From: Nitrospirota bacterium
GTDB lineage: Bacteria > Nitrospirota > Thermodesulfovibrionia > UBA6902
Direction: 5' to 3'
Length of the DNA: 64,000 nt
Assembly (NCBI GenBank): GCA_039715075.1
Contig: JBDLIC010000003.1
Span: 7-64,006, forward strand
The notes below the pieces were generated by a model. That model ran no database searches and had not been told where the DNA came from. It was given only the letters and a program-made list of their open reading frames with translations. Below, in pieces: positions 4,693-58,093 of the stretch. How positions within the stretch are numbered: position 1 is the first letter of the stretch; each line of letters starts with the position of its first letter. The translations under genes were made by a program, and so were the position numbers.

Positions 4693-4693
4693 T

Positions 4694-4781
4694 GCGGAAG
4701 TTCGAAAGCGCGGAAGTTTAAAGACAACAAAGGCGACCCTTAGGGTCGCCCTTTTTTTTAACTTCCGCGCTTCCGCGCTTT
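4694..4781. repeat. Nested-palindrome repeat element with bidirectional terminator core, copy 1
   Basis: Outer arms gcggaagtt.../...aacttccgcgc enclose ggcgaccc-tta-gggtcgcc + T8; second copy at 11281..11366; lies between convergent genes. Confidence 0.85.
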
Positions 4782-4786
4782 CCCAC

Positions 4787-11234: not shown

Positions 11235-11280
11235 CTTCCCTGTTAATGGATGCAGGTGTTTTAACCATGTAACTCAGCAA

Positions 11281-11366
11281 GCGCGGAAGTTCGGAAGCGC
11301 GGAAGTTTAAAGATAGCAAAGGTGACCCAAAGGGTCGCTTTTTTTTAACTTCCGCGCTTCCGAACT
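11281..11366. repeat. Nested-palindrome repeat element, copy 2
   Basis: gcgcggaagttcggaagcgcggaagttt...ggtgaccc-aaa-gggtcgc + T-run...aacttccgcgcttccgaac; homologous to 4694..4781. Confidence 0.85.
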
Positions 11367-11486
11367 TATAAATAACGCTTTCCTTATAACAGGGTAAAGT
11401 TGTAAAATGTGTTCTGAATCCCCGCGAAAGCGCATTGCGATAGTCTTTTCGGATAAAAGGGATATTGATCGGAATGGAGATGATTA

Positions 11487-12970: not shown

Positions 12971-14338
12971 ATGGAAAAAATTCTCATTGTAGAAGATAAA
13001 GACTCTCTGGCACAGATGCTGAAGGAGACCCTGGAGCTCGGGGGATATGAGGTTGTAACTGCAAGTGACGGGGCTGAAGGGATCGAGAGGGTAAAGGACA
13101 GTAAGGCTGACGTTGTAATTACTGACATGAAACTGCCCAAGAAGAACGGGCTTGAAGTACTGAAGGCATCGAAAAATGAGAACCCCCTTGTACCAGTAAT
13201 CGTAATGACAGCGTTTGGATCTGTTGAGACTGCCGTTAATGCCATGAAACTTGGTGCCTATGATTTTATTACAAAACCGCTTGACACAGACTACCTGCAG
13301 CTGCTCATTCAGAGATCAGTTAAAAACCAGAGGATTGTTACGGAAAACCTCCTTTTAAAGGATATGCTGTCCCAGCGGGTAGGTATGCCCGACATTATAG
13401 GAAAAAGCCCTAAAATGATCGAGGTTGCCGAGAACATCCGGAAGGTTTCCGCCACCCGAACGAGTGTACTGCTGCTGGGTGAATCAGGTACTGGTAAGGA
13501 ACTCTTTGCAAGGGCTGTGCATGATTTAAGTCCAAGAAAGGACTACCCCTTTGTCCCGATAAACTGTGCTGCGATACCCAGGGAATTGCTGGAGTCTGAA
13601 CTCTTTGGCCATGAAAAGGGTGCATTTACCGGTGCAGGGGAGAGAAAACTTGGTAAACTGGAACTTGCTGACAAGGGCACGATGTTCCTGGATGAGATTG
13701 GTGAAATGGACATGTCATTACAGGCGAAAATACTAAGGGCCATCCAGGAGGGAGAAATTGACAGGGTCGGAGGAACAAATTCGGTCAAGATAGACATTCG
13801 GATAATTGCTGCCAGCAACAGGGACCTTGAGGCTGCAGCGGCTGATAAAACTTTCAGGGAAGACCTGTACTACAGGCTGAGTGTTTTTCCGATTTCACTG
13901 CCTCCTCTCAGGGAGAGAAAAGAAGATATTCCTGCGCTGGTTGAGCACTTTATAAGCAAATATTCTTTAGAGATGAATATAGCGCACAAAACAATAAGCC
14001 CGGAGGCTGTAGACCTTTTGATGAGTTATACGTGGAAAGGGAATATACGGGAGATTGAAAACGTGATTGAAAGGGCGCTCATCCTGTGTGAAGGAGACAT
14101 TATAACAAAAAATGAATTAAGGTTGAATCCCATTGCTTCATCTGAAGGGCAGTCTATGGACAGTGACCTGACCGGAACTCTTGATGAAGTTGCAAAGGCT
14201 GCCCTGAAATCAGCAGAGTCCCGGAGAATAAGAAAGGCGCTTGAAGATACTCACGGTAATAAGACAAAAGCAGCGGAAATGCTTAAAGTCAGTTATAAGA
14301 CACTGCTGACGAAGATCAAGGATTACAGGATAGGATAA
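12971..14338 (+). CDS. Sigma54-dependent response regulator (NtrC/AtoC family)
   Basis: REC domain (DMKLP), AAA+ GESGTGKE, GAFTGA motif, C-terminal Fis-type HTH. Confidence 0.9.
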   Translation: MEKILIVEDKDSLAQMLKETLELGGYEVVTASDGAEGIERVKDSKADVVITDMKLPKKNGLEVLKASKNENPLVPVIVMTAFGSVETAVNAMKLGAYDFITKPLDTDYLQLLIQRSVKNQRIVTENLLLKDMLSQRVGMPDIIGKSPKMIEVAENIRKVSATRTSVLLLGESGTGKELFARAVHDLSPRKDYPFVPINCAAIPRELLESELFGHEKGAFTGAGERKLGKLELADKGTMFLDEIGEMDMSLQAKILRAIQEGEIDRVGGTNSVKIDIRIIAASNRDLEAAAADKTFREDLYYRLSVFPISLPPLRERKEDIPALVEHFISKYSLEMNIAHKTISPEAVDLLMSYTWKGNIREIENVIERALILCEGDIITKNELRLNPIASSEGQSMDSDLTGTLDEVAKAALKSAESRRIRKALEDTHGNKTKAAEMLKVSYKTLLTKIKDYRIG

Positions 14339-14450
14339 GAAGTAAGTGAGAAATGAGAAATAAGAAGTGAAAAATGGGAAGTAGATGTTTCAAGAGAGCT
14401 ATAGCCGGTTATTTTTTATTTCTAATTTCTGATTTCTTACTTCTCATTTC
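14339..14450. repeat. Long imperfect palindrome built from purine-rich 7-nt words
   Basis: Left arm agaagtaagtgagaaatgagaaataagaagtgaaaaa; right arm ttttttatttctaatttctgatttcttacttctcatttc. Confidence 0.8.
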
Positions 14451-21268: not shown

Positions 21269-21400
21269 CCCCACAGTTTCTGCTGTGGGGTTTCCTCTTA
21301 ATCCCCACTTTGGAAAAGGGGGGCGAGGGGGGATTTTTTAAAATAATAGTTTTTTTACCTAACGATCCCCCGCTGTCTCCGCGGCGGGGAGTCTTCATTT
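21269..21400. repeat. Hairpin cluster related to the two-hairpin element family
   Basis: ccccacag-tttctg-ctgtgggg; taatccccactttggaaaagggggg; ccccgc...gcggggagtcttca, which resembles ggcggggagcttcac of copies A and B. Confidence 0.6.
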
Positions 21401-21419
21401 GGAATTTGATAAATGGAAT

Positions 21420-22958
21420 TTATTTTTCTTTTGTTGCCCACTTGATTATCTCTTCGACCATGGCCTCAACGGTCGCTTTTTCAGGTATGATACTGACCTT
21501 CAGTCCTGCCTTTTCCACTGCCTTTGCGGTAACCGGGCCTATTACGGTTATTGCGACATCCTTAAGAAGTCCTTTCGCATCATCACCCATAATATCCATA
21601 TAGTTATTGAATGTGGCAGCACTTGTGAAGGTTGCAATAGAAATTTTCCCCTGCTTCAGAAAACGCTTAAGCCTCTTGCCATGAACCTCCGGCTTCACAA
21701 TCTTATATGCAGTAAATACATCTATCTCCCCGCCCAGTTCCCTGACTTTCTGCGGAAAAACTTCTCTGGCAATCTCAGCCCTCGGAAGAAGTATCTTTAT
21801 CCCTTTCAGGCTGTTTTCTGAAGTCTTTTCGCGATGCTCCTTCATGAAGGATTCAATCAATCCCTCTGCATTAAACTTTTCCGGAACAAGATCGACTCTT
21901 ATGCCGTACTTGTTGATTGCTGTTTCCGTCTTGGATCCGACAGCGCATATCCTGATTCCTTTCAGGTCTCTGATGTCCCTGTCTTTTTCCAGTAATCTCT
22001 GGAAGAAGAACTTAACACCGTTGACGCTTGTGAAAATCAGCCAGTCATAGGAATCTATTTTTTCCATGGACCGGTCAAGCTCTGACCAGTCGTCGGGTGG
22101 AAGTATATCTATTGTACGGAACTCTATTAATTCAGCCCCCAGATCCTCCAGCTGCTCAAATCCCTCTGTATGCTGTCTGGTGATAAGCACCCGCTGACCG
22201 AACAGAGGTTTATTTTCATACCACTTAAGGGTTTCCCTCAGTTTTACGACTTCTCCTACGACCATAACCGCAGGGGGTTTGATATCATTCTCTTTGACCA
22301 GGGCAGGGATATTTGACAAAGTGCCTGTCAGTGTTGTCTGGTCCGCCCTTGTTCCCCATCTAACTACAGCAACGGGAGTATCCGGTTTTCTGCCGTTCTC
22401 AATAAGTTTGCTGCATACCTGTGCGATATTTTTTACTGCCATCAGGAATACAATAGTACCGACCCCTGTGGCCAGCCTGGACCAGTCAATAGAGCTCTCC
22501 TTTTTTGTAACATCCTCATATCCAGGCACTACAGCAAGTGATGAGGAGTACGACCTGTGGGTCAGGGGAATACCGGCATATGCCGGAGCTGCAACTGATG
22601 AGCTGATGCCCGGAATGACTTCAAACTCGATGCCATTTTTTACAAGGACTTCTGCCTCTTCTCCGCCCCTTCCGAACACAAAGGGATCTCCCCCCTTGAG
22701 GCGGCAGACGGTTTTGCCTTCATTTGCTTTTTCAATGAGGGTTTTGTTTATATCATCCTGAGTCATATCATGCTGGCCGCCCCTTTTGCCGGCGTATATG
22801 AACTCTGCATCATGATGTACATAGTTCAGGACCTGGGCATTCAGGTGGAAGTCATAGACCACGACATCTGCCTTCTGGAGGCATTTGAATCCCTTGACCG
22901 TAAAAAGTCCGATATCTCCCGGCCCTGCGCCGACGATGTAAACTTTACCTTTTTTCAT
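21420..22958 (-). CDS. Uroporphyrinogen-III C-methyltransferase / uroporphyrinogen-III synthase fusion
   Basis: N-terminal VYIVGAGPGD SAM-methyltransferase half, C-terminal HemD-like half. Confidence 0.85.
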   Translation of the reverse strand: MKKGKVYIVGAGPGDIGLFTVKGFKCLQKADVVVYDFHLNAQVLNYVHHDAEFIYAGKRGGQHDMTQDDINKTLIEKANEGKTVCRLKGGDPFVFGRGGEEAEVLVKNGIEFEVIPGISSSVAAPAYAGIPLTHRSYSSSLAVVPGYEDVTKKESSIDWSRLATGVGTIVFLMAVKNIAQVCSKLIENGRKPDTPVAVVRWGTRADQTTLTGTLSNIPALVKENDIKPPAVMVVGEVVKLRETLKWYENKPLFGQRVLITRQHTEGFEQLEDLGAELIEFRTIDILPPDDWSELDRSMEKIDSYDWLIFTSVNGVKFFFQRLLEKDRDIRDLKGIRICAVGSKTETAINKYGIRVDLVPEKFNAEGLIESFMKEHREKTSENSLKGIKILLPRAEIAREVFPQKVRELGGEIDVFTAYKIVKPEVHGKRLKRFLKQGKISIATFTSAATFNNYMDIMGDDAKGLLKDVAITVIGPVTAKAVEKAGLKVSIIPEKATVEAMVEEIIKWATKEK

Positions 22959-23071
22959 ATTTTAAATAACCTGAATCGTGATTTTCTCAATGCGGAATGC
23001 GCTATACATGATAACATATCGTGCGAAGGTAATGCAGGGGGGGAATCGTGAATTACCCTGACCCCACTCAC

Positions 23072-23307
23072 AAAGGATAAAAAGAGATTGACGATTGACG
23101 AAGGGAAAGAGGAAAGGAAAATGACGATTGATGATCAAGGAATGACTAATGACGTTTTTTTACTTCGTAATTCGTAAATCGTCAATCGCTATTCGTCAAT
23201 TTCCGTTTATCTTTCCCGCTTCCGCACTTTTCTTTTTTTCTTGACACGTATCTATATTTTTCATACCATTGTTTTTGAAAAGGAGTGGGATTTCTTAGGC
23301 CCATTTT
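23072..23307. repeat. Island repeat unit copy 1: ~145-nt attgacg-word palindrome plus conserved ~90-nt module
   Basis: aaaggataaaaag..attgacgattgacgaa...ttcgtcaatttccgtttatcttt, then cccgcttccgcacttttctttttttcttgacac...gggatttcttaggcccatttt. Confidence 0.85.
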
Positions 23308-23349
23308 CATTGATTGATAATTGTTAATTGATTAAAAGAGGGAACGACT

Positions 23350-23793
23350 ATGGAGCAGAACCGAGCCACGCAAATCATGGAGCAAGGCTGTACTTGATCG
23401 GAGGCTGTACTCCAGGCCGTGTGCCAGGAATTTGAGATAGAGATAGAGAACGATGTCCTTTCCCGAGTTGCCTTCGGCTTCGCAGGGGGGCTCGGCAACA
23501 CGGGGGCCGTCTGCGGTGCCGTCATTGGTGCTGTCATGGCTATCGGCCTTAAGCGCGGGCGGGCTGATACAATGGAAGAAAGTCTCCGCGAATTGGCGCT
23601 GCCGCGGGAGTTTCGCCGCCGCTTCGAGGCAGAGATGGGGACCATCAGCTGCCGTGAATTGACGGGGCTGGATTTGACCACAGAGGAGGGGCTTCAGCAG
23701 CTCATGAGGTCTGACATACCCCAGACGGTCTGCTTTCCAGCGGTTAGCACAGCTTACCGGCTGGTGGTGGAACTGCTGAAGGAAACCCCTTAG
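23350..23793 (+). CDS. C_GCAxxG_C_C-family redox protein with in-frame TGA (candidate Sec) at 23395..23397
   Basis: ATG 23350 (GAGGG RBS) is in frame with track ORF 23419..23793; the TGA aligns with the first family Cys (G-x-x-C-[AS]-[EQ]-[AS]-V-L); GAVCGAV, SCREL and TVCF are present. Confidence 0.65.
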
Positions 23794-24016
23794 AAAAGGA
23801 TAAAAAGCGATTGACGAATAGCGATTGACGATTTACGAAGTAAAAAAAACGGCATTAGTCATTTTTCTTTCCTCTTTCCCTTCGTCATTCGTCATTCGCT
23901 ATTCGTCAATCGTCAATTTCCTTTTATCTTTCCCGCTTCCACACTTTTATTTTTTTCTTGACACATGCCTATATTTATAATATCCACTATTTTAGTGGGG
24001 GGGTCTTAGGCCCATT
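23794..24016. repeat. Island repeat unit copy 2 (palindrome core inverted relative to copy 1)
   Basis: 23836..23880 is the reverse complement of 23103..23167 apart from a 21-nt indel and point differences; same downstream module cccgcttccacactttt..cttgacac..gtcttaggcccatt. Confidence 0.85.
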
Positions 24017-24046
24017 AATACGTTATCTTTGAAGAAATATAATTAT

Positions 24047-24081
24047 TTGACTTCATATATAATGTGGGTTACTATAGCTAT
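24047..24081 (+). promoter_or_regulatory. Putative sigma70 promoter with overlapping palindromic operator of the RHH-mazF module
   Basis: TTGACT-N17-TACTAT; 10-bp perfect palindrome tatagctata (24072..24081) overlaps the -10. Confidence 0.45.
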
Positions 24082-24108
24082 ATATATCCACATAACTTGG
24101 AGGTGTTT

Positions 24109-24339
24109 ATGAGAACCATTCAGATGACGTTAGATGATGACCTTGTGGAAGCTGTAGACAGGCTGGCAAAGAAATTAAAAACAACCCGTTCTGCTTTTAC
24201 ACGTAAGGCCTTGCGAGAAGCCATTAAACAAGTAAATATCAGATCGCTCGAAAATAGACATAAAAGAGGTTATGAACGTTATCCCGCAGGTAAAACAGAA
24301 TTCAGAGTTTGGGAATCAGAACAAGAATGGGGCGATTAA
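24109..24339 (+). CDS. Ribbon-helix-helix (CopG/MazE-like) antitoxin
   Basis: GGAGG RBS; MRTIQMTLDDDLVEAVDRLAKKLKTTRSAFTRKALREAI is RHH-like; TAATG overlap with the toxin gene. Confidence 0.8.
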   Translation: MRTIQMTLDDDLVEAVDRLAKKLKTTRSAFTRKALREAIKQVNIRSLENRHKRGYERYPAGKTEFRVWESEQEWGD

Positions 24340-24650
24340 TGAAAAGGGGAGAAGTCAGGTGGTATAAATTCAGGAATCCTGACAAAAAACGTCCAATAGT
24401 AATACTGACAAGAGATGCAATATTAGAATATTTAGGCGAGGTCACTATAGCACCAATAACATCAACTATCAGAAACATTCCAAGCGAAGTATTGCTTTCC
24501 ACTCAGGATGGAATGAAGAATGATTGTGCCATTAACTGCGATCACATTCAAACAGTTTCAAAATCAAGAATTGGTTCATTAATTATTACCTTATCTAATG
24601 ATAAACTTATAGATCTCCGCAGCGCTATATGCTTTACATTAAGTATTTAA
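24339..24650 (+). CDS. mazF: MazF/PemK-family endoribonuclease toxin
   Basis: KRGEVRWYKF...KRPIVILT...VTIAPITST pattern; start overlaps the antitoxin stop. Confidence 0.8.
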   Translation: MKRGEVRWYKFRNPDKKRPIVILTRDAILEYLGEVTIAPITSTIRNIPSEVLLSTQDGMKNDCAINCDHIQTVSKSRIGSLIITLSNDKLIDLRSAICFTLSI

Positions 24651-24746
24651 ATAATAAAAGGAGATAACCATTAGATACTCATGAAAGCTCAGTGGTGGCA
24701 GCACCTGCTACCATTTGATATAATTATTTAGTAACTTTTTAAATAA

Positions 24747-25202
24747 ATGGGAATAAAACAACTTATAGGGCTCATAAGCATACTTCTTATTTTTCTGGGC
24801 TGTGCAACTAAATGGCATCATCTGGAAGGGCATGGTAAGGAAGTACAAAAACTTGATGTATCAAGTTGCAAAGCAGAGGCATATTCATACGCAACAGATA
24901 AATTGACCGACCCTTCACATCCAAGAGGGCCCAAAGTGTGGAAATTTGCCTTCAGACTAAATTATGACGTTCATTATCACGAATGCATGAATAACAAAGG
25001 CTGGGAGTTGGCATATTATGACGGTAATGTTAAGGATAAGCATAAGTCTGATAGCGATAATTGCACAGTTCAGGGATGGAGATACGCGAGAGATAAATTA
25101 TTCGAACCTTCGCATCCACAAGGACCCAGAGGCTGGAGATATGGCTATAAACATAATTTAAAATCTCATTATCAGGAATGTATGCAGAGCAAAGGCTGGT
25201 AA
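24747..25202 (+). CDS. Lipoprotein with internal two-fold duplication
   Basis: Lipobox IFLGC; two ~50-aa repeats each with C...DKLxxPSHPxGPxxW...HYxECMxxKGW. Confidence 0.6.
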   Translation: MGIKQLIGLISILLIFLGCATKWHHLEGHGKEVQKLDVSSCKAEAYSYATDKLTDPSHPRGPKVWKFAFRLNYDVHYHECMNNKGWELAYYDGNVKDKHKSDSDNCTVQGWRYARDKLFEPSHPQGPRGWRYGYKHNLKSHYQECMQSKGW

Positions 25203-25231
25203 AGCTGAGTAAGCTTTAAAGAATCAATTCA

Positions 25232-25285
25232 CATTAGTCATTCCTTGATCGTCAATCGTCAATTTCGTTTATCGTACCCGCTTCC
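25232..25285. repeat. Island repeat unit, partial copy
   Basis: cattagtcattccttgatcgtcaatcgtcaatttcgtttatcgtacccgcttcc; same orientation as copy 2. Confidence 0.7.
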
Positions 25286-25348
25286 TGTTTTTCGAATGTC
25301 CGAGCTTCCGGGTTGAATATAGCATGAGTACCGTGCTATCATGATAAT

Positions 25349-25642
25349 ATGATCCAGTCGTTCCGGAATAAAGGGACAGAAGATATATTTAATGGCATAA
25401 ATTCAAAGGATGTGCGAAAGATATGTCCTCAATCAATATGGAAGGTTGCTACAAGAAAGCTGGATCAACTGGATTCTGTAATAGAGCTTAATGAACTACG
25501 CATTCCCCCAAACAATAAGCTGGAGTCATTAGCAAGAGATAGAAAAGGACAATACAGCATAAGGATAAATGATCAGTATCGTATTTGTTTTATATGGAGT
25601 GATTCTGGTCCGGATAAAGTAGAAATTACTGATTATCATTGA
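25349..25642 (+). CDS. higB: HigB-family (RelE/ParE superfamily) toxin
   Basis: MIQSFRNKGTEDIF...YSIRINDQYRICF...ITDYH matches the plasmid-maintenance killer protein pattern; toxin-first gene order. Confidence 0.85.
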   Translation: MIQSFRNKGTEDIFNGINSKDVRKICPQSIWKVATRKLDQLDSVIELNELRIPPNNKLESLARDRKGQYSIRINDQYRICFIWSDSGPDKVEITDYH

Positions 25643-25664
25643 GATAATTATTAGGAGGTTAACA

Positions 25665-25982
25665 ATGGTGAGGATACCAACACATAGAGAACCGACGCAC
25701 CCGGGAGAAATGCTGCTTGAGGAGTTTCTTAATCCTATGGGCATTACTCAGAGAGAACTGGCTGAAAAGATTCATGTGCCATATCAGCGAGTAAATGAAA
25801 TCATTAATAAAAGGCGAGGCATTACACCGAGTACAGCCTTAAGGCTTGCAAAATTATTCAGAGTTTCTGAAGATTTCTGGATGAACCTTCAGTTGCGCTG
25901 GGATTTATATAAAGCAAGACTAAATGAATCAAAGGAATTGAAGGAGATTAGACCCTTAAAGCTCAAGCAGACAGCGGTTTAA
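25665..25982 (+). CDS. higA: HigA-family XRE-HTH antitoxin
   Basis: HPGEMLLEEFLNPMGITQRELAEKIHVPYQRVNEIINKRRGITPSTALRLAKLF. Confidence 0.85.
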   Translation: MVRIPTHREPTHPGEMLLEEFLNPMGITQRELAEKIHVPYQRVNEIINKRRGITPSTALRLAKLFRVSEDFWMNLQLRWDLYKARLNESKELKEIRPLKLKQTAV

Positions 25983-26033
25983 TAAAATGCCCAAGAAGGC
26001 AGTGCATTGGAACGAGTGATAAAGGGTAATTCG

Positions 26034-26150
26034 TGAATTACCCCTACACTTGAACTTACCCGCTTCCTCACTTTTCTTTTTTTCTTGACACATGCCTGTA
26101 TTTGAAATATCCTTATTTTAAGTAAAGGGGGGATTTCTTAGGCCCATTTT
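26034..26150. repeat. 20-bp palindrome plus island module copy 3
   Basis: gggtaattcgtgaattaccc, then cccgcttcctcacttttctttttttcttgacacatgcct...ggggggatttcttaggcccatttt. Confidence 0.85.
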
Positions 26151-26210
26151 CATTTATTCGTAATTCTGACCCCAAACGTTTAAAACGTTTTTTAAAAAGG
26201 AGGCGATATC

Positions 26211-26399
26211 ATGGAAGATATTCAAAAGCACACTGACTGTGATAATTTTCAAAAGCCTGAATGTCCGCATTATGACAATGGCATAATGAAGGATCTTTAT
26301 CTTATTAAGGAAGATGCCGCAAATTATTCAGGTAACTTACCTGATCGAGTTGACAATGAATTATGTAAAGAATGCTATGAATTCTCTCCTATAACTTGA
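26211..26399 (+). CDS. Small Cys4 (zinc-ribbon-like) hypothetical protein
   Basis: Strong AGGAGG RBS; Cys pairs C10/C18 and C52/C55. Confidence 0.5.
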   Translation: MEDIQKHTDCDNFQKPECPHYDNGIMKDLYLIKEDAANYSGNLPDRVDNELCKECYEFSPIT

Positions 26400-26588
26400 T
26401 GATCTTTTTAACCTGAATACAGAACGGTGAGCAATGTATGGAGTCAAATCTTTATTAGATATTTAGCAAATTCCGACATAACCTACTTGCATGCGGTGCT
26501 CCAATCCCCAAGCCGCCAGCTGATTTGGATTAAAAGGGCTGACCCCTTATCCGTTAATGGTAGAGATTAAATATAAGTGGAGGGTGAT

Positions 26589-26921
26589 ATGCAGCGTTTC
26601 AAAAAATTTATAGATCAAAGTCTTAATTCAGAAAATATAATAAACTCAGATCAATTATCTGCATTCGGGATAACATGTACAACTCTGCCGGACCCGCCGG
26701 AAGAATTTGACGAGTTTGAATTTAGAACCGGTTTTTCAGAGCAAATGGATGTTGTGATCGGGGTGGCAATAGAAATGGGGAAAGTTAAAAGGATCTTGTT
26801 GGGTTTGTCAGAAAAGAGTGACCCTGATAGTTTTATGGCTTTGTCTGAATTACAATTAGAAGAATTTTTAACGCAGAGGGGCGATCAGCTGATCGGGTTT
26901 TTTAAATTCATTACGCAATAA
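26589..26921 (+). CDS. Hypothetical protein
   Basis: GGAGGG RBS before ATG 26589; no motif recognised. Confidence 0.45.
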   Translation: MQRFKKFIDQSLNSENIINSDQLSAFGITCTTLPDPPEEFDEFEFRTGFSEQMDVVIGVAIEMGKVKRILLGLSEKSDPDSFMALSELQLEEFLTQRGDQLIGFFKFITQ

Positions 26922-26925
26922 AAAT

Positions 26926-27156
26926 ATGTCGAATGCGAAAAAGTTTATTTATAGCAATAAATTTATAGGGATTCTTCTCATCTTAACTTCTTTTATGCCT
27001 TTCATTAACGGCTTCAAAGGTGAGAGAATTGCTATCTCGGCTAGATATGGGGGCGCATTCGAAATGGAACCATGGCAAAGTATAATTATTGGATTTTGTT
27101 TTTTACTTGGCGGATTATATTTTGTAATTGATTTGAATAAAAGAAATGAAAAATGA
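26926..27156 (+). CDS. Small two-TM membrane protein
   Basis: Two hydrophobic helices; directly follows the previous ORF. Confidence 0.45.
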   Translation: MSNAKKFIYSNKFIGILLILTSFMPFINGFKGERIAISARYGGAFEMEPWQSIIIGFCFLLGGLYFVIDLNKRNEK

Positions 27157-27620
27157 GTGGCTGCGAAGGATCATATAAATCCGGTGTTAGTGAAGTTGTA
27201 CGACGTTCTGTAAGTGAAATAATAAATGAAAATATAAACATAGAGTGGACTCAAACAGGCTATAGCCGAACGGTGGACTACCCCTAGCTATAGTGCCACT
27301 CTAAGTTAGCGTTTTCCAGTAAATTCATTTTTTAAAAGGTGCACTTCTCGATAATTTATTAGGTTATGGGAGCTGGGCGCTGTTAATAGAAAATTCTTGT
27401 AGAATAGGCGGGTTTTCGTTAAAATGTAACATCTTGATTAATTGGGATTTTACAATTCTTCCCAAATTGGCAAATAGGGGAGTTTTAAACCTAATCTAAT
27501 CAGTGGATTTATTTTTGGGGTGGATGTTTGTTAATTGCATAGAGTTGAACCTACTAATTCTAAAAAAATCCGCAAAAAGCGTTATCATTAAAATAGTTTG
27601 ATAATAAATTAAGGAAATAC

Positions 27621-28640
27621 ATGGCTAATAAAGCAACAAACAAAAAACAGAAGAGCCTGGAAGAGACCCTTTGGGATTCTGCTAACAAGCTGCGTGGAAG
27701 CGTTGAACCATCAGAATACAAGCATGTGGTTCTGAGTCTTATCTTTCTGAAGTTTGCCAGTGAAAAATTTGAGCACCGGCGACAGGAACTGACTGATGAG
27801 GGGAAAGAGAAGTATCTCGATATGGTGGAATTTTACACTATGAAGAACGTTTTCTATCTTCCGGAGGAATCCCGCTGGGGCTATATCAAGAAGCACGCGA
27901 AGCAGGATGATATTGCCATCAAGATTGATACGGCTCTTCATACGGCTGAAAAGACGAACAAAGCTCTGGAAGGTGCATTACCGGACAACTATTTTTCCCG
28001 CTTGAACCTTGATGTCAGTAAACTGGCCGCATTGATAGATACAGATAAGAGTAAAGAAATCGATATTTTTAATGATGACTATCTTGCAAAGATAGAAAAG
28101 ATCAAACTGCCCAATACGAAAATTAAGCTCTTGCAGTATTTGCTGTCTAAAGCTATTGATGAATTTAAGAAGATCAATAAAATCAAAGGAATTGACTTTA
28201 CAAAAAAGTTTAATGCTTTAGTTGAGCAATACAATGACAGGAAAGAGCAGGATGTTTTGGTCAGTAATGTGCTTGAAGATTTCACAGGAGAAATTATTGA
28301 TCTATTTCATGCCATGAAGAAAGAGAAGGAATCTTTTGGTGATATGGGGATCGATCTTGAAGAGAAGGCTTTTTATGACATCCTCAAAGCACTGACTATT
28401 AAGTATGATTTTGAATACCCCGAGGACAAACTACTGAAATTGGCAAAGGGAGTAAAAAAGGTTGTTGACGATAAAGCGAAATATACAGACTGGAGCCATC
28501 GCGATGACATTAAAGCTGAACTAAAGGCGGATCTGATCATCCTTTTGGCAGAGAATGGCTACCCTCCCGTAGACCGGGATGAAGTGTATAAAGAAATCTT
28601 TGAGCAGGCTGAGAATTTTAAGAAGTATCAGGGAAAATAA
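27621..28640 (+). pseudogene. In-frame chimera of HsdM N-terminal domain and HsdR C-terminal domain (type I R-M remnant)
   Basis: N-terminal ~140 aa look like HsdM_N (LEETLWDSANKLRGSVEPSEYKHVVLSLIFLKF); the rest resembles the HsdR C-terminal helical domain (LVEQYNDRKEQ...EEKAFYDIL); no methylase, S or helicase/nuclease sequence. Confidence 0.6.
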
Positions 28641-28718
28641 TGGGTGGTATCATTACCTGTTCTCCTCAATATTTGATGTGTTTCCCATTTTTAGGTAAAA
28701 TTTTCTTAGAGATCCTAT

Positions 28719-28931
28719 ATGAAAAGACAATTACTATATTTAGCGCTTATTTGTGTTGTCCCGGCAATACTGTATTTCCTATCACTGGAGAAGGTCATTC
28801 CAATGCCTGCTGATGATGCTCATGCAAACCTTACGGAAATCGCCCAGTGTTTCGAGTGTCACGGCGAAGGCATGGAATATGCCCGCAAAAAAGAGCATCC
28901 ACCAAAAGACCAGTGCTTTAAGTGTCATTAA
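28719..28931 (+). CDS. Small membrane-anchored diheme c-type cytochrome
   Basis: N-terminal TM helix; two CxxCH motifs (CFECH, CFKCH). Confidence 0.65.
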   Translation: MKRQLLYLALICVVPAILYFLSLEKVIPMPADDAHANLTEIAQCFECHGEGMEYARKKEHPPKDQCFKCH

Positions 28932-28990
28932 AAATGCGGTAGTCAAAAATTGTGTTTACAATATTTGTAAAGAGAACTATTGACTAATTA

Positions 28991-29033
28991 ATTTTCATTA
29001 AATATGGGGCTCTGCCCCATATTTAATGAAAAT
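28991..29033. repeat. Perfect 20-bp-stem palindrome
   Basis: attttcattaaatatggggc-tct-gccccatatttaatgaaaat. Confidence 0.95.
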
Positions 29034-29119
29034 CTATCAATTACTTAAATATATAGACAGCACCTCTAAACAGGTGCTATAATAAAACCAATTAACAATA
29101 CCAGTAAGGAGGTTCGAAT

Positions 29120-29425
29120 ATGGGAACTAAATTTTCCGAAGATATAATCCCGCTAGGTGACCTAAAGGTGAATCCCGGTAAAGTTGTTTCTCATGTGAAT
29201 GAGACGCACAGGCCGGTACTGCTGACCAGCAGAGGACGGGGGGTGGCTGTAGTACAATCACTTAGCGACTATGAGGATGAGACTGAGAAGCGTGTTTTTA
29301 TGCAGGATATAGTAGAGGGATTAATGGACCTTGAAGAAGGCAGGGAACTTTCACTGAAGGATGTAAAGAAGCGTCTGCGTATTGTCCGCATCTGGAGAAG
29401 CGAAAGACATCTGAAAAAGCCATGA
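29120..29425 (+). CDS. Phd/YefM-family antitoxin (orphan)
   Basis: GGAGG RBS; LGDLKVNPGKVVSHVNETHRPVLLTSRGRGVAVVQSLSDYE; no intact toxin gene downstream. Confidence 0.7.
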   Translation: MGTKFSEDIIPLGDLKVNPGKVVSHVNETHRPVLLTSRGRGVAVVQSLSDYEDETEKRVFMQDIVEGLMDLEEGRELSLKDVKKRLRIVRIWRSERHLKKP

Positions 29426-29489
29426 CTCCTGCTTCTGTAAGCTTCCCCCTTAAGTCGATAGTTCTAAATTAGATTTCCCGGGAGATTGT

Positions 29490-29783
29490 CTATTGATCCT
29501 TTTTTGTACGATTTGGAATCACAAAAAGTATTATCAGTCCAATGAAACTTAATAAACCCAATAAAGCAAAAGAATCGTGATAGCCTTTTCCTGTTGCCAT
29601 GTGATAACAACCGAAAAAGAAAATAACAACCCCCACAATATATGTCGCCGTAGAAATGTATTCGTAATTTCCCCCCAGCTGAAAAAGAATATCAAAAAAG
29701 TACCCCATAAAAGCTACAAGAAAACCAATGCCTGCAAGCTGAGTCCCTTGTTTATATTTCTTATTCACAATCTCCACTTTCAA
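29490..29783 (-). CDS. Small membrane protein (3 TM)
   Basis: Hydrophobic helices; AT-rich; downstream of the transglutaminase-like gene. Confidence 0.5.
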   Translation of the reverse strand: MKVEIVNKKYKQGTQLAGIGFLVAFMGYFFDILFQLGGNYEYISTATYIVGVVIFFFGCYHMATGKGYHDSFALLGLLSFIGLIILFVIPNRTKKDQ

Positions 29784-29849
29784 ACGTCAGCTTTCATATT
29801 TAATCTTAATCTCTCCAAACTTGTTTTTATATTCGATGAAGGTGCTGCT

Positions 29850-30224
29850 CTATTCTCTACTTTTTCTTACAGGTATAATACCCTTTTTTAGCAACTTACA
29901 AAGTATGGGAACTTCCAAACCACTTATTAAAAAGGAATCCCCAAAGGTAGCCATATGCCAATAAAATAAATTCTCATTTGTCTTGGTCATTTTTAATAAC
30001 AAAGTATCTAGAACGATGTTTGGGTCATACTGAATAGCTGTAAATCCTTCGTGATAAGCAAGGTAACAATTTATTGCGACACTGGTTAAAACAAAAATCA
30101 TCCCGATAATTGTAATTATAAATGTCCAGAGTATGGATTTTTTGCAAATAGTTGTACGACAATCAAGGATACAAATAGTCCAGATGAAGAGATATCCCCA
30201 AAAAACAATTTGATATTTATTCAT
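29850..30224 (-). CDS. Small membrane protein (about 4 TM)
   Basis: Hydrophobic helices; starts 9 nt after the stop of the 1055-aa gene. Confidence 0.5.
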   Translation of the reverse strand: MNKYQIVFWGYLFIWTICILDCRTTICKKSILWTFIITIIGMIFVLTSVAINCYLAYHEGFTAIQYDPNIVLDTLLLKMTKTNENLFYWHMATFGDSFLISGLEVPILCKLLKKGIIPVRKSRE

Positions 30225-30232
30225 AGTTAGTG

Positions 30233-33200
30233 CTAATTATTACCGTACAATACAGAGTTAACACATTGTCCAAAGTTATGGATACTTAAGCCCATTAAAG
30301 CACCATTAATAATATTACCCAGTATTTTAACAATATTTGATTTCAGAAATTTGCTCATATAGTCAAATGATACTTTGGCAGCAACTTCAGTAACTTTTAT
30401 TCCATAGAAGCAGTTCACAAAATCAGACCCTACTTTTCCCCCATAGAGATACATTATTGATAAAATAACAGTAGCAAAAAAAGCTGCTAACAAAGCTGCT
30501 AAGATGGGTAGCAAAAGTGGAGCAGCAACTGTCGCTCCAGTCAATAATAGTGTTAAGAATAGAAAAAAACCTGCCAGAAGTAACAATAGTGTACCTATTA
30601 TCATCATAGCACCTGCTAATCTCCCACTAATCATATAAGCCCCAGCCCCTGTAAGCGGATCAATGATTATATAGCCCAATCCTGTCCAGCCGTTGTGTGT
30701 GATATCGGTTCTCGATACAGTCACTGTTTTGCCTGCATTCACCGCATTCTGTATATCAGCTATCGTTCCGCTATCTGTTTGTAACTGTGGAAGGATTGTA
30801 TCAATATTGGTTTGATTAATTGTATAAATAGGTATCCCCTGATCATTAGCAATCTTTAAGGCCTTAACTGCACTTATTCCCTCAGCCGGATTCTCAGGCG
30901 TCGAAAACAACTGTTCAGGCACCGAATGCTCCAGAGCCGATCCACTCATACCTGATGAAAGCATAAACTGCTTCGGCTTTTCTTTATCAGCATCCAATGC
31001 TTTAACAAGTGTCATAATCCTGTCCGCATCCATTGCCAGTCCGCCGGGGCTAACCGACAATGGCATATTCATAAACTTGTTTACACTCAGTTCATACGAA
31101 AAGATTGTCTCAGAGGGCAATCTCATCGCTTTGACTCCCATAGTCTGTGCACTTATATAGTCCATCACATCATGCTCTGCAAAATATGATATAGCAGTTG
31201 TGTACAGCAGGTCCCCAAGGATATCATCTTTTGTCATATCTGAGAAATCCTCTGCTTCCAGCTTTGCTTTAGTTGCCTCCAAATTTGCTTTAACCGCCAG
31301 CATCTGCTCTTCCGATATCCTGTATGGATCAATTCCAATACCCAGGTATTCCCCTGCTTGTATATCATTGAATATTATATCGGCACCTGCAGCAGGATCC
31401 ATAAACGTCATCTTGAATTCCTCTGTTGCTCCCAGACCAATTTCTGTCCCTGTTGCTACTACTTCCCCATCGATCATTAACTCAGGTTTAAGATTTATCA
31501 GATAAGCAGCCAATGATGTCGGCAGTTCAGTTGGATCAATGGGTGTCCCGTCTTCATGTGGCTCTGGAAGATAGGAATTGATGACAGCTTCATCATCAGG
31601 CGTTGCAGGTGAATAGCTTAATGTCACCTTCTTCCCAGCCAGCTCCGGCAGACTCTTTGTTATGTTTATCGGAGTACCCATTAAATCATCATGTATATCT
31701 TTTTTAACTTCAAACGTTATCTTATGTCTCAGACTATCCGGAACTTCAGCATGCTCTGCCCCATTTACTATTGTCCTGTACGGAAGGGTCCCAAGTAAAT
31801 AGGGAAATTCCTGAGGGATTATTTCTTTCTTCCCCAGCACGTCCCCGACCGTTGCATCCGGATAGTTCGTGTTTATATAATCTTCGACCTGAGTCTGATA
31901 ATCCGTCATTGTATTATCTATAAATAAAGAATCAACATCAGTTACATAGCCTTCTTCTTCGTTAATGGTAGCAGAGGCCTGTATCTGGTTTATGAATGTC
32001 TGTGCATCAAAGGGCACTGCTGACTGTATATCTACCCCCTGCATGTAATTGTACTGCTTGAAACTTGCATCAAGATGTATCCACGTATCTCCCTGTCCTG
32101 TCTGGTGGGTTGATCCTCTGTACGGGAAATAATCTATCCATGCCTCAACCCAGACATGCTCAATCCTCGCATATTTAACCTCTCCGCCAGCCAGTATGCC
32201 TGATACCGGTATTCCTGCTGACGCAAGCAGGTTTAGTGCCTCCATTTTGTCCGTAAACCCACCAAGCCAGTTCATTACTTTCTCTATCGGTATTTCAACT
32301 GTTCCTTCTACATATCTTGCATGAATACCTGATATACGGAGAAGTGCTATCAAAAGACTGGCTGTATCAATGGCGTTGCACTGTTTTGTCTGAAGACAAT
32401 AGTCAGCTCCCTGTATTGATCCATATGTCGGAACAAAATCAATATTATTACGGACCCATTCGTAGATTTTTAGCGGATCATTTTCGAGCTCTGCTGCTTT
32501 TGCTGTTATTGCATCCGTAAATTGTACTTCTATCGTCTCTTCCAGATCCTCAGATACAGGCGGGGCAGATTTTGCTATGAGAAAAACCGGAAGTTCAAAA
32601 GCAGGGAAGCCAGGATGATCAGAATCCCACCACTCTGTTCCATCAAAACCCTCAAGCTCCCCTGCTTTCTCCCTTCCTTCTGCCCCCATGTCCCCTGCTG
32701 GGTACTCTGACCCTGAAGGCAATATTCCTGCCAATGACCCATGTGACGCAATAAGAATCATCTTTTGTCTTTTGCTTATGACCTCTGCCCTTCGCTCTAT
32801 GCCAAATTCTTCTTTCTTTATACGAGGCTCCTTAAAAACCGGCTCTGCTGTCCTGTGTGGAAGTTTATTCGGGTCTACCGGCTTATATTTTTTCGGAGGG
32901 TTAAGTTTCTCAATATGCTTCTTCGCATTTTCAAGTGCAAAAATTTCACTTTCTACGGTCCGTGCCTGCCCTATGGCATTAAGTTTACTTTTTAGCTCTT
33001 CAAGATTTTCTTCATATTGATTTACAAAGTCATAATGCCTCTTTAATATCTTCTGAGGCAATCCTGCGTTCTTTAATCTCTGTTCCGTCTCTTTAAATTT
33101 CCCTCTTATTTCTTTATCAAATACTGCTATCTCTGCCATTTTCTCCTGCAATTTATCATTTTTGGCACACGCATTTGAAACGGGATCATCCAGAATCTGC

Positions 33201-33400
33201 TCCATTTCTTTTAATTGCTTCTGAAGTTTTTCTTCAGGCTGCCGTTCTTTCCTCTTTCGCTTATTGCTGACCGCTGACAACTGATCGCTGTCTTTAATTG
33301 CATACGCAACATCCATTAGCCCGCCAAACGTCCATGAAAAAAATAACAGTACTACACACGAAACAATCCTTACAGCATATAAATGCCTCATTTCAGCCAT
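30233..33400 (-). CDS. Large transglutaminase-like (Cys-protease fold) protein with N-terminal coiled coil and C-terminal TM bundle
   Basis: Core QCNAIDTASLLIALLRISGIHARYVEG ... HVWVEAWID; N-terminal signal/anchor; Lys/Glu-rich coiled coil; C-terminal hydrophobic block. Confidence 0.7.
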   Translation of the reverse strand: MAEMRHLYAVRIVSCVVLLFFSWTFGGLMDVAYAIKDSDQLSAVSNKRKRKERQPEEKLQKQLKEMEQILDDPVSNACAKNDKLQEKMAEIAVFDKEIRGKFKETEQRLKNAGLPQKILKRHYDFVNQYEENLEELKSKLNAIGQARTVESEIFALENAKKHIEKLNPPKKYKPVDPNKLPHRTAEPVFKEPRIKKEEFGIERRAEVISKRQKMILIASHGSLAGILPSGSEYPAGDMGAEGREKAGELEGFDGTEWWDSDHPGFPAFELPVFLIAKSAPPVSEDLEETIEVQFTDAITAKAAELENDPLKIYEWVRNNIDFVPTYGSIQGADYCLQTKQCNAIDTASLLIALLRISGIHARYVEGTVEIPIEKVMNWLGGFTDKMEALNLLASAGIPVSGILAGGEVKYARIEHVWVEAWIDYFPYRGSTHQTGQGDTWIHLDASFKQYNYMQGVDIQSAVPFDAQTFINQIQASATINEEEGYVTDVDSLFIDNTMTDYQTQVEDYINTNYPDATVGDVLGKKEIIPQEFPYLLGTLPYRTIVNGAEHAEVPDSLRHKITFEVKKDIHDDLMGTPINITKSLPELAGKKVTLSYSPATPDDEAVINSYLPEPHEDGTPIDPTELPTSLAAYLINLKPELMIDGEVVATGTEIGLGATEEFKMTFMDPAAGADIIFNDIQAGEYLGIGIDPYRISEEQMLAVKANLEATKAKLEAEDFSDMTKDDILGDLLYTTAISYFAEHDVMDYISAQTMGVKAMRLPSETIFSYELSVNKFMNMPLSVSPGGLAMDADRIMTLVKALDADKEKPKQFMLSSGMSGSALEHSVPEQLFSTPENPAEGISAVKALKIANDQGIPIYTINQTNIDTILPQLQTDSGTIADIQNAVNAGKTVTVSRTDITHNGWTGLGYIIIDPLTGAGAYMISGRLAGAMMIIGTLLLLLAGFFLFLTLLLTGATVAAPLLLPILAALLAAFFATVILSIMYLYGGKVGSDFVNCFYGIKVTEVAAKVSFDYMSKFLKSNIVKILGNIINGALMGLSIHNFGQCVNSVLYGNN

Positions 33401-33605
33401 GTCCCCTTAACATGTTTTTTAGTTGTATTAGGCTGTACAAAACAGCTTGTTACGAATCATTAATTCTAGCACTTGATTCGTTTAAAAGAACCTGTCATTT
33501 CTTACAGGGGGGTAGGGTGGAAAATTAAAAGAACGGTTCGAACGATCCAATGTTCAAGCGTTCAACAGTATGCAGCGGATGGTACATACCGTGCCTTGCC
33601 TGTAA

Positions 33606-33625
33606 GGGTAATTCATGAATTACCC
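33606..33625. repeat. Perfect 20-bp palindrome gggtaattcatgaattaccc
   Basis: Same motif at 26034..26053 (one centre base differs); degenerate copy at 23041..23058. Confidence 0.9.
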
Positions 33626-33695
33626 CTACGTTTTCCCTGCCTACCGGCAGGCAGGTACTTCTCATGACGATTACCTAAGTTCGACAGTCTCTCAA

Positions 33696-33727
33696 AATAA
33701 CAACAAACAAAAAAGACCCGGATATAA
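33696..33727 (-). terminator. Rho-independent terminator of the rpsA-sppA-ihfB transcript
   Basis: cccgga-tataaa-tccggg stem followed by a T-run on the minus strand. Confidence 0.8.
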
Positions 33728-33793
33728 ATCCGGGCCTTTATTTTGGATATTAATTTTTATATGATATTTTTCCTTAAATCAAAGGAAACAGTT

Positions 33794-38060: not shown

Positions 38061-38714
38061 CTATTTCTCCTTCTTTAATTTTCCCATGATCCTCTCAACC
38101 ACCTCTTCTATAGTCAGGCTTGTTGAATCTATATCTATCATATCATCTGTTTTTTCCAGGGGAGAACTTTCCCGGGAAGAATCCCTTGAGTCCCTTTTTT
38201 TTATGTCTTCAATAGTCTGTTCTATTGTTATATCAGGGTCTTTAAGCTTCAGTTCCTCAAACCTTCTTCTTGCCCTTTCTTCTATGCCTGCATCAAGGAA
38301 AAACTTATTTTCCGTTTCCGGGAAGATAGTTGTGCCCGTGTCCCTTCCCTCAATTACAACCCTGCCTTTCATGCAGATGTCTCTCTGCAGGGGAAAGAGA
38401 CCTTTTCTTACAACAGGCCTGGCTGAAACCTTTGAACTTAATTCCCCGATTTCAGCAGTCCTGATCTCCTTCGAAACATCGATGGCGTCCACAAAGATCT
38501 TATCATCAGTGAATGTTATGCTGATTTGATCTAAAACCTTTTTGAGATCATTGTCACTTTCAGGGTCAATGTTTTCCTGTTTTGCCTTCCATGCAACAGC
38601 CCTGTAAAGGGCGCCGGTATCAAGGTAGCTGTAACCGAGTCTCTTTGCGACAATTCTTGCAACCGTTCCTTTACCTGACCCGGAAGGGCCGTCTATTGTA
38701 ATTACGTTTTTCAT
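38061..38714 (-). CDS. cmk: Cytidylate kinase
   Basis: ITIDGPSGSGKGT P-loop; start moved to MKNVITIDG because the upstream track codons lie in the repeat element. Confidence 0.88.
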   Translation of the reverse strand: MKNVITIDGPSGSGKGTVARIVAKRLGYSYLDTGALYRAVAWKAKQENIDPESDNDLKKVLDQISITFTDDKIFVDAIDVSKEIRTAEIGELSSKVSARPVVRKGLFPLQRDICMKGRVVIEGRDTGTTIFPETENKFFLDAGIEERARRRFEELKLKDPDITIEQTIEDIKKRDSRDSSRESSPLEKTDDMIDIDSTSLTIEEVVERIMGKLKKEK

Positions 38715-38726
38715 ATAAATACAATA

Positions 38727-38807
38727 GGGGTCGAGGATTCGAGGGGTCAAGGGTTCAAGTGAAAGACCTCTAACAAAGCTCCCTTGAACCCTCGAACCCT
38801 TGACCCC
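38727..38807. repeat. Palindrome built from 8-nt words (gaggattc/gaggggtc/aagggttc), family member 1
   Basis: ggggtcgaggattcgaggggtcaagggttcaagtgaaag ... cccttgaaccctcgaacccttgacccc. Confidence 0.85.
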
Positions 38808-38813
38808 TTTTTC

Positions 38814-40977: not shown

Positions 40978-40989
40978 AATATTAAAAAA

Positions 40990-41086
40990 GGGTTCCAGGA
41001 TTCAAGGATCCAAGGGTTCAAGTGAATTTTTTTGTACGTTTTCTTTTTTCACTTGACCCCTTGGATCCTCGACCCCTTGAATCCTC
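40990..41086. repeat. 8-nt-word palindrome, family member 2
   Basis: gggttccaggattcaaggatccaagggttcaagtgaa ... ttcacttgaccccttggatcctcgaccccttgaatcctc. Confidence 0.9.
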
Positions 41087-42231: not shown

Positions 42232-42242
42232 AAAAAAATATT

Positions 42243-42351
42243 GAAGGGTTCGAGGATTCGAGGATCCGAGGGTTCGAGTGAACTGCAATATGTTATTCAA
42301 AGAATAACAGTTTTTTCACTTGACCCCTCGGACCCTTGACCCCTTGACCCC
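42243..42351. repeat. 8-nt-word palindrome, family member 3
   Basis: gaagggttcgaggattcgaggatccgagggttcgagtgaa ... ttcacttgacccctcggacccttgaccccttgacccc; inner hairpin tgttattc-aaa-gaataaca. Confidence 0.9.
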
Positions 42352-42356
42352 TTTTT

Positions 42357-58074: not shown

Positions 58075-58093
58075 TTAAACTGAGAGGTCCATT

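Follow-up and report, generated by a model that had tools for sequence, protein, structure and literature searches.

The window analysed here, 64,000 nt from a Nitrospirota bacterium (Thermodesulfovibrionia; UBA6902; assembly GCA_039715075.1, contig JBDLIC010000003.1, positions 7-64,006 of the forward strand; G+C content 0.42), contains a short intergenic repeat unit that recurs in front of small genes and is built of a long hairpin of tandem heptamers followed by a conserved, promoter-like module. The units occupy the cobA end of a lineage-specific variable region between cobA and the gene for the HU protein. The CobA/HemD fusion protein (21420-22958, minus strand) shares 66-82% identity with proteins from 35 Thermodesulfovibrionia metagenome-assembled genomes, and in these relatives the HU gene lies 230-2250 bp from cobA, compared with 10.8 kb in the window (22959-33793). 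Because the HU gene adjoins cobA in relatives, we treat the whole 22959-33793 stretch as variable. The genes near the units all lie on the plus strand: a gene of the C_GCAxxG_C_C family with a candidate selenocysteine codon (the Sec gene), a ribbon-helix-helix (RHH) antitoxin with its MazF toxin, a 151-aa open reading frame (ORF), a HigB-HigA pair, a Cys-rich ORF and further small ORFs. The region also holds a truncated hsdM-like gene and a Phd antitoxin. Judging from its sequence, the locus is a lineage-specific mosaic of three repeat types, namely a GTAG-tagged repetitive extragenic palindrome (REP), hairpins built of k-mers and a promoter-like module that has been reused. We see in it an ordinary product of recombination among repeats and no demonstrable switch.

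The repeats are real and well above chance. Two module patterns, CCCGCTTCCNCACTTTTNTTTTTTTCTTGACAC and TCTTAGGCCCATT, match three times each in the window (at 23215, 23932 and 26059, and at 23293, 24004 and 26136), against 0.00 and 0.14 matches expected in shuffled sequence. The modules measure roughly 65-105 nt, lie on the plus strand and fall within 3.1 kb. The first (u1, 23215-23322) opens with a decayed 8-mer array, CCCGCTTCC GCACTTTTC and a T-run (23215-23240), continues with two hexamers that match the promoter consensus, TTGACA (23241-23246) and TACCAT (23264-23269) at a 17-nt spacing, and closes with the conserved block GGGATTTCTTAGGCCCATT (23287-23305) and a heptamer-like tail; the ATG of the Sec gene lies 80 nt past the second hexamer. 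The second (u2, 23932-24016) ends early, after GGCCCATT, and its TTGACA (23958-23963) is followed by TATCCA (23981-23986), a second hexamer without the final T. The third (u3, 26057-26165), the 3' part of a third unit, carries TTGACA at 26085-26090, TATCCT at 26108-26113, the conserved block up to 26148 and the tail TTCATTTATTCGTAATT, with the ATG of the Cys-rich (Cys4) ORF 97 nt past the second hexamer.

Two related metagenome contigs are the only places beyond the window where the module occurs. Of the six known copies, the window has three, contig L002 (PJEL010166627.1) two, and contig L043 (JGI 3300037460) one together with an additional 3' fragment. They precede three unrelated genes in three genomes, and all face the downstream gene at 80-122 nt from its ATG. 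Their common core runs from CTTGACAC to TCTT(A/T)GGC(C/T)CA. The left ends vary, some including CCCGCTTCC, some starting at the T-run and one at CTTGACAC, and the right ends fall at GGCCCATT or at CGTAATT, while the promoter-like core is always retained. TTGACA is invariant in 6/6 copies. TAnnnT is kept in the five that supply the sole promoter candidate of their gene and is lost in u2, which stands before a toxin-antitoxin (TA) operon with its own promoter; at u1 and u3, TTGACA-N17-TAnnnT scores 10/12. The module is restricted to one lineage. Three exact-pattern scans of 185,579 species genomes gave 0, 0 and 1 match, and we rejected the single match, inside a Clostridia coding region, as chance. 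There were 0 matches in viral contigs and none by blastn in plasmids and phages, a metagenome scan returned one related contig (L002), and an nhmmer profile of the six copies found no further copy in the window, in 35 cobA loci of relatives or in 120 REP-bearing loci.

We predict that the module is most likely a reused sigma-70-type promoter together with the first ~40 nt of its leader. Promoter reuse by putative mobile promoters, the subject of a commentary (PMC3575422), is a close parallel: there, too, similar upstream regions with a promoter consensus precede non-homologous, horizontally acquired genes and are separable from them. In contrast, the copies here cluster within 3 kb, are coupled to hairpin repeats and carry a promoter that is predicted.

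The ~40-nt block conserved after the putative start site, common to the leaders of unrelated genes, could instead mean that a small RNA, or a cis-regulatory leader with a structure of its own, is encoded in the module. This we consider very unlikely. The covariance analysis that the earlier note had proposed for the module did not bear out a structure: for the transcribed part, RNAalifold gave a stem of only 3 bp at -2.2 kcal/mol with no compensatory change, and the block is not followed by a terminator. By eye we had read a G-C to A-U change, but the alignment did not uphold it, and conserved RNA structure was rejected. Rfam returned no match at gathering score in the window, and at E up to 10 it gave none for the module, the only matches being spurious ones of microRNA precursors to the hairpin.

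The other component of the units consists of two hairpins of ATTGACG/CGTCAAT-type heptamers, to which no strand is assigned, at 23072-23214 (unit 1) and 23794-23931 (unit 2). In unit 1 the segment 23087-23200 encloses an asymmetric centre (~23103-23170) of a purine tract and T7; in unit 2 the segment 23810-23917 encloses a centre (~23840-23880) of A8 and a pyrimidine tract. The unit 2 hairpin begins 1 nt past the stop codon of the Sec gene, and its very stable, A/T-rich 38-bp stem is followed by TTTCCTTTTATCTTT, a T-rich tract. As RNA, unit 1 is a weak palindrome (-37.5 kcal/mol, z = -2.8) and unit 2 a strong one (-54.6 kcal/mol, z = -12.1).

These two hairpins are inverted relative to each other. 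Aligned with the reverse complement of the unit 1 centre, the unit 2 centre reaches a local score of 42, against 11 in direct orientation and 24 for the best of 500 shuffles, which upholds the opposite core orientations described in the earlier note. Inversion had been placed there at 23103..23167, and this extent was too small: the whole segment 23810-23917 is the reverse complement of 23087-23200, with limits running from the outermost ATTGACG to the outermost CGTCAAT. Of the flanks said to keep their orientation, only the A/T-rich outer ones, AAAGGATAAAAAG and TTTCCKTTTATCTTT, do; the remainder is inverted with the centre. The inverted arms measure 23-38 bp and include the perfect 14-bp pair at 23810 and 23897 noted before, and T7 (23155-23161) and A8 (23842-23849) are likewise present in the sequence. 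A repeat finder recovered the same direct and inverted repeat families and inverted-repeat pairs. The indels between the hairpins are of 7 and 21 nt, i.e. whole heptamers.

A perfect 30-bp inverted repeat, 23171-23200 / 23810-23839 (47 nt at 87%), also brackets a 609-bp segment that comprises module u1 and the Sec gene; in principle this segment could invert as a whole.

An orientation-dependent terminator or insulator switch, in which the centre flips between its arms and alters read-through or insulation (T7 versus A8), had been suggested on the strength of these features. The centre is indeed bounded by inverted repeats of 14-38 bp, and both orientations occur among the three copies, much as invertons (fimS, hin-type) present a segment bounded by inverted repeats in two orientations. 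Here, however, the opposite orientations sit at different, paralogous loci and not at one locus, and since then the copies have drifted apart through point changes and the 7- and 21-nt indels. No invertase is encoded in the window, and Pfam scans of its ~60 ORFs across 64 kb found no integrase, transposase or recombinase domain either. The ~110-bp segment, shorter than the 314-bp fimS segment, contains neither a promoter, a weak 9/12 match being the only one in the hairpins, nor a G+C-rich terminator stem; the T7 run has no such stem before it, and a terminator scan called no intrinsic terminator in either hairpin.

Assembled reads show one orientation per locus. Two Logan contigs of sample SRR27843388 (L001 and L046) are 100% identical to the window over 21337-23200 and 23820-32291, and each spans one hairpin centre unbroken in the orientation of the window, with no break at the boundaries of arm and centre. 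Their ends coincide with the perfect 30-mer that is inverted between 23171-23200 and 23810-23839; this shared 30-mer explains the break in a de Bruijn assembly, and heterogeneity is not needed. The assembler drops minor variants, so these contigs are weak evidence against switching. Overall, we regard a switch as very unlikely and favour the ordinary mosaic; a switch active at low frequency would escape such contigs.

The third unit is split. A partial unit at 25232-25286, with no strand assigned, consists of the right half of a heptamer hairpin plus TACCCGCTTCCT, and it has the unit 2 orientation, as had been proposed (score 63 against the reverse complement of unit 1, 39 direct). Joined to 26068-26150, its stretch 25232-25285 is colinear with the hairpin and module of unit 2. 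The partial unit is thus the 5' part of unit 3, and it and the third module are one unit interrupted by a ~780-bp higBA insertion. Repeated units had been recognised correctly, but the count of three full units and one partial unit falls to three, the partial and the third being halves of one.

The insertion (25287-26056, plus strand) has the 12-bp direct repeat TACCCGCTTCCT on both sides (25275-25286 and 26057-26068) and carries a predicted promoter, TTGAAT-N18-TATCAT (25313-25342), HigB (25349-25642), HigA (25665-25982) and a copy of the REP discussed below. A second block (24017-25231, plus strand) comprises the RHH antitoxin (24109-24339), the MazF/PemK toxin (24339-24650) and the 151-aa ORF (24747-25202), with its own predicted promoter, TTGACT-N17-TACTAT, inside a palindromic operator (24047-24093). 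This block starts directly after GGCCCATT of module u2, ends in the middle of a hairpin centre, and is absent from the relative L002. CATTA is found at both of its junctions (24013-24017 and 25232-25236); at 5 bp it is too short to tell a target duplication from chance. RHH-mazF and higBA are each predicted to have their own promoter with a palindromic operator, and the units are therefore not their upstream elements. The split unit and the block junctions inside units indicate that the TA genes landed within pre-existing units. The earlier statement that each unit lies directly upstream of a cassette consequently holds for the modules before the Sec gene and the Cys-rich ORF, and fails for RHH-mazF and higBA, which came later.

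Comparison with relatives points to repeated recombination at the units. Contig L002 has the order cobA, REP, module, Sec gene, degenerate hairpin, one module, Cys ORF. With one module between the Sec gene and the Cys ORF, it is without the 2.1-kb u2-u3 TA block, and this single module has a u2-type left flank and is u3-type from alignment column 28 on. Its hairpin centre is too diverged for an orientation call, with scores at shuffle level. In L043, a module fragment, heptamers and a full module follow one another with no gene between. The non-orthologous pair u3 and uA is more similar (identity 0.89) than the orthologous pairs u1 and uA (0.73) and u3 and uB (0.83), uA and uB being the L002 modules; similarity across loci above that of orthologues indicates exchange between copies. 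Junctions vary among events, falling after GGCCCATT, in mid-hairpin or after CCCGCTTCCT. The second suggestion of the earlier note, a footprint of recombination between palindrome arms, is in keeping with the data: inverted heptamer arms bound the segment, the indels are heptamer-sized, point changes have accumulated, and further junctions lie within units at the 12-bp duplication of higBA, at the RHH-mazF-ORF151 block and at the single module of L002.

The module is also separable from the genes that it precedes. The Sec gene (23350-23793, plus strand) has an in-frame TGA (23395-23397) at the position of the first Cys of its family, conserved in 4/4 homologues for which the DNA was read (L002, L047-L049); this TGA is a selenocysteine candidate. 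Its G+C content of 0.59, against 0.42 for the window, marks it as foreign by composition. Homologues in other lineages (L047-L049) are ~85-89% identical in amino acids, have unrelated flanks and lack the module, and many metagenome contigs, among them ones labelled Deltaproteobacteria or Zixibacteria, encode proteins 78-89% identical to the ORF downstream of the TGA; a look-up of the 124-aa Sec-gene ORF itself found no record. The gene looks like a horizontally spreading selenoprotein gene, a candidate by its sequence. For the Cys-rich ORF (62 aa, 26211-26399, plus strand), only ~45 nt upstream of the ATG travel with the gene in other lineages; among contigs with homologues the module is present in L043 and in none of L038-L042 and L044.

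Two sets of short repeats accompany these genes. In L047-L049 a pair of 13-bp inverted repeats (AGACTGCCAGGCC / GGCCTGGCAGTCT) encloses the Sec gene. The motif TTTAGCAAATTCCG lies downstream of the Cys-rich ORF in the window (26459-26475) and upstream of its homologues in L041 and L042, and may be another small repeat or a cassette-boundary sequence.

The arrangement of the region resembles integron attC arrays and clusters of attC sites lacking integron-integrases (CALIN) in that imperfect palindromes stand between small same-strand cassettes, TA pairs among them. If the hairpin or module were an attC-like recombination site, the absence of the 2.1-kb block between two units in a relative would follow naturally, and in L047 the Sec gene is indeed followed by an attC-like GTCTAAC ... 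GTTAGGC. There are also differences: the R''/R' cores are absent, with no RYYYAAC in 22959-26210 and GTTRRRY only at 24129 and 25312, inside ORFs and not at hairpin ends; no integrase is encoded in the 64 kb; the junctions are imprecise, unlike those of site-specific recombination; and the TA blocks bring their own promoters. Membership among attC sites was rejected on the first three of these points, and we hold an integron-like site to be very unlikely. It is tempting to speculate more broadly that the unit is a working part of an unrecognised cassette-exchange system of Thermodesulfovibrionia, in which a portable promoter with palindromic arms, served by a recombinase or single-strand transposase encoded elsewhere, would capture, express and flip or reshuffle promoterless foreign genes, the Sec gene perhaps being a former integron cassette. 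This idea is a long shot.

The remaining component of the mosaic is the 20-bp palindrome, which the earlier note had placed in the hairpin position of the third unit. It is not a homologue of the heptamer hairpins but a separate REP-type element at the end of the higBA insertion. A pattern search found three copies in the 64 kb, the first and last without an assigned strand: a degenerate one, GGGGGAATCGTGAATTACCC, directly upstream of unit 1 (23039-23058); the inserted copy P20b, GGGTAATTCGTGAATTACCC+CTAC (26024-26047); and a third, GTAA-GGGTAATTCATGAATTACCC-CTAC, at 33606-33625 (33602-33629 with its tags), downstream of the HU gene, where the variable region ends on the side away from cobA. 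REP copies thereby bracket the cobA-HU region. The palindrome runs into CTAC at 26044 and 33626; in L002, where the REP also lies upstream of the module before the Sec gene, it has GTAG in front.

The palindrome GGGYAATTCNTGAATTRCCC, with its tags GTAG-GGGYAATTCNTGAATTRCCC-CTAC, was matched without the tags at no fewer than 120 loci in species-representative genomes, against ~9 sites expected by our own estimate, and the matches listed include Cyanobacteria, Planctomycetota, Chloroflexota, Omnitrophota, Nitrospirota, Zixibacteria and other phyla. Among 113 listed sites with full flanks, GTAG...CTAC is present on both sides in 61 and on one side in 30, and 17 form the core of a longer palindrome. 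Y and R in the stem covary among the matches listed (82 C..G, 12 T..A, 6 mixed). The palindrome presents itself as a GTAG-type REP with an unusually wide phyletic spread. As in the GTAG-tagged REPs described by Di Nocera et al. 2013 (PMC3733652), it is a short extragenic stem-loop with a GTAG/CTAC tag; that study also reports REPs lying within long palindromes, and intergenic regions in which repeats of several families alternate as a mosaic. A full-text literature search found no paper with this REP sequence. The heptamer hairpins and the module differ from REPs in being longer, built of tandem 7-8-mers and confined to one lineage.

Two further observations concern such elements. The 28-bp GTAG-GGGCAATTCATGAATTGCCC-CTAC is nearly identical across phyla at more than 113 sites, and the longer palindromes that host it are locus-specific. 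A second REP family is possibly represented by TTTTGATGCCCCGCCTTGTAGGCGGGGAGCTTCACT, a G+C hairpin with GTAG in it, of which two copies, 97% identical, lie at 54-89 and 58040-58075.

GTAG-type REPs are thought to be mobilised by RAYT transposases (PMC3733652), and their presence beside the units raises the question of whether the heptamer hairpin is itself a non-autonomous element, MITE-like (miniature inverted-repeat transposable element) or REPIN-like, that inserts either way round with ATTGACG...CGTCAAT ends, perhaps with an outward promoter and a transposase elsewhere. Its inverted termini, the occurrence of both orientations inside the same A/T-rich flanks, and the similarity across loci in excess of that between orthologues would all fit. 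Yet the hairpins have no flanking target-site duplication, the module has no defined ends, and no transposase is encoded in the window, where neither a Y1-transposase domain nor a RAYT gene was found. The three copies are local: blastn searches of the window, of 35 cobA loci from Thermodesulfovibrionia and of 120 loci with a REP detected no further hairpin, and public collections gave none. We judge mobility of this kind doubtful, with a small share of our credence.

In Neisseria, Correia elements and minimal mobile elements offer a related case: they are short inverted-repeat elements that can carry promoter hexamers, lie between genes, set off variable cassettes from the conserved genes on either side and serve as recombination substrates. 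Correia elements and dRS3 repeats, the latter mentioned as mosaics in PMC3733652, resemble our units in intergenic position, boundary marking and a role in recombination, but have no sequence relationship to them, and neither target duplication nor a high dispersed copy number is seen here.

We propose that the mosaic includes a "stop-and-go" spacer of two separable elements, in which a terminator-like or REP-like hairpin precedes a reused promoter that serves foreign genes, with the repeats acting as recombination junctions; we regard this as evenly poised between right and wrong. The hairpin, with its heptamer arms, A-tract and T-rich flanks, would most likely end or insulate upstream transcripts, and the module would drive acquired genes that have no promoter of their own, namely the Sec-containing C_GCAxxG gene and the Cys-rich ORF. 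In the HU-cobA variable region the unit would have multiplied in tandem, and sequence identity and palindromic arms may have made its copies substrates for recombination: blocks would have been gained and lost between module copies, and two TA blocks, each with its own promoter, entered units. One hairpin had its centre inverted between its own arms. Arm-to-arm recombination, template switching during replication and gene conversion in antiparallel register can each produce such an inversion in a quasi-palindrome, and any of the three may have acted here; template switching would also explain the matching heptamer expansions in both arms.

Several points weigh against the spacer. Promoter use is deduced from a consensus match, and the second hexamer is weak (TATCCT or TACCAT). 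A scan of the region gave 13 promoter-consensus matches where 10.6 are expected. Orthologous modules share 0.73-0.83 identity, compared with 0.76-0.80 at third codon positions of the neighbouring genes (cobA 0.76, Sec gene 0.80); with modules no better conserved than third codon positions, these figures do not demonstrate purifying selection on the module. No role is assigned to the conserved 3' block TCTTAGGCCCATTTTCATTGATTCGTAATT. Unit 1 has its hairpin between divergent genes, a setting in which a terminator would serve no obvious purpose. Finally, the evidence comes from 64 kb of this genome and two short related contigs.

The same observations lend themselves to a neutral account, in which the units are decaying debris of local tandem duplication and illegitimate recombination in a variable region that tolerates junk, hairpin and module are functionless, and the hexamers are accidental. 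Each ATTGACG heptamer already includes TTGAC; promoter-like matches are not enriched over shuffles and orthologous modules are no more conserved than synonymous sites; and all copies lie within 3 kb. Parts of the module also look like decayed repeats: its 5' part (CTTTCCCG CTTCCGCA CTTTTCTT) resembles a decayed arm of the 8-mer family D6 at 4751-4795, and its tail (TTCATTG ATTCGTA ATT) is heptamer-like, as in a decayed array, continuing in L043 into CGTAATT GGTAATT TGTAATT AGTAATT. What speaks against debris is that the core from -35 to about +30 alone is kept in all six copies despite differing breakpoints, that both cargo genes are without another promoter candidate, and that the unit is maintained in at least three diverged genomes. 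We think a neutral origin unlikely, if a serious contender, and retain the spacer as our working explanation.

Should the module be an active promoter, promoter reuse in nature would be clearly exemplified here. A lineage-specific terminator-plus-promoter spacer would have wired foreign genes (a selenoprotein gene of 59% G+C and a small Cys-rich ORF) into the host, and the same repeats would drive the gain and loss of cassettes. Two practical points follow for those working with such genomes: k-mer-built palindromes are abundant between the genes of this Nitrospirota lineage and break short-read assemblies, and one 28-bp GTAG REP is common to many phyla. For specialists in bacterial repeats there is nothing surprising here, and no long-standing question is opened.

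The unit hairpins belong to a class of k-mer-built intergenic palindromes common in this genome. At least six others with tandem 7-8-mer arms lie in the window, at 4691-4795, 11280-11367, 14335-14445, 38712-38808, 40975-41085 and 42231-42352, and the most stable 120-nt folds of the window include them. Their arm sequences are family-specific (GCGCGGAA/GTTCGGAA; GGGTTCAAG/GGATTCGAG; GAGAAAT). Two (4691 and 11280) enclose classical terminators of a G+C hairpin plus T8, and three stand between genes of a cmk-aroA-tyrA-hisC-pheA operon. Cyanobacterial short tandemly repeated repetitive (STRR) sequences are likewise intergenic tandem repeats of heptamers. In Beggiatoaceae, Cyanobacteria and Bacteroidetes, TAACTGA forms arrays of direct repeats immediately before start codons (PMC4679880). 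Such arrays share with the present repeats the intergenic tandem heptamers, often mixed with other heptamers, and the breaking of assemblies, and a regulatory or rearrangement role has been suggested for them; in contrast, the heptamers here form the inverted arms of 140-nt hairpins, and the k-mers differ from family to family.

Other features of the window lie apart from the units. The variable region (22959-33793) contains three TA-type modules (RHH-MazF, HigBA and the Phd antitoxin), the truncated hsdM/T1RH-like gene (27621-28640) and a 1055-aa protein with a transglutaminase domain; no tRNA or tmRNA gene was found in the window. A 30-nt inverted repeat, 97% complementary with a 106-nt gap, separates a 672-aa ORF from a glycosyltransferase gene (56884-56913 / 57020-57049). 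Tandem heptamers also occur within coding sequence, as TTCTGAC repeated 4.5 times at 39914-39945 inside aroA (EPSP synthase; minus strand), where they are read as ...EVRSQKSEVR.... Coding tandem repeats with a 33-nt period are present in a Gly/Met/Tyr-rich ORF on the minus strand (63664-63893) and in a small Lys/Ala/Glu-rich ORF (2775-2939).

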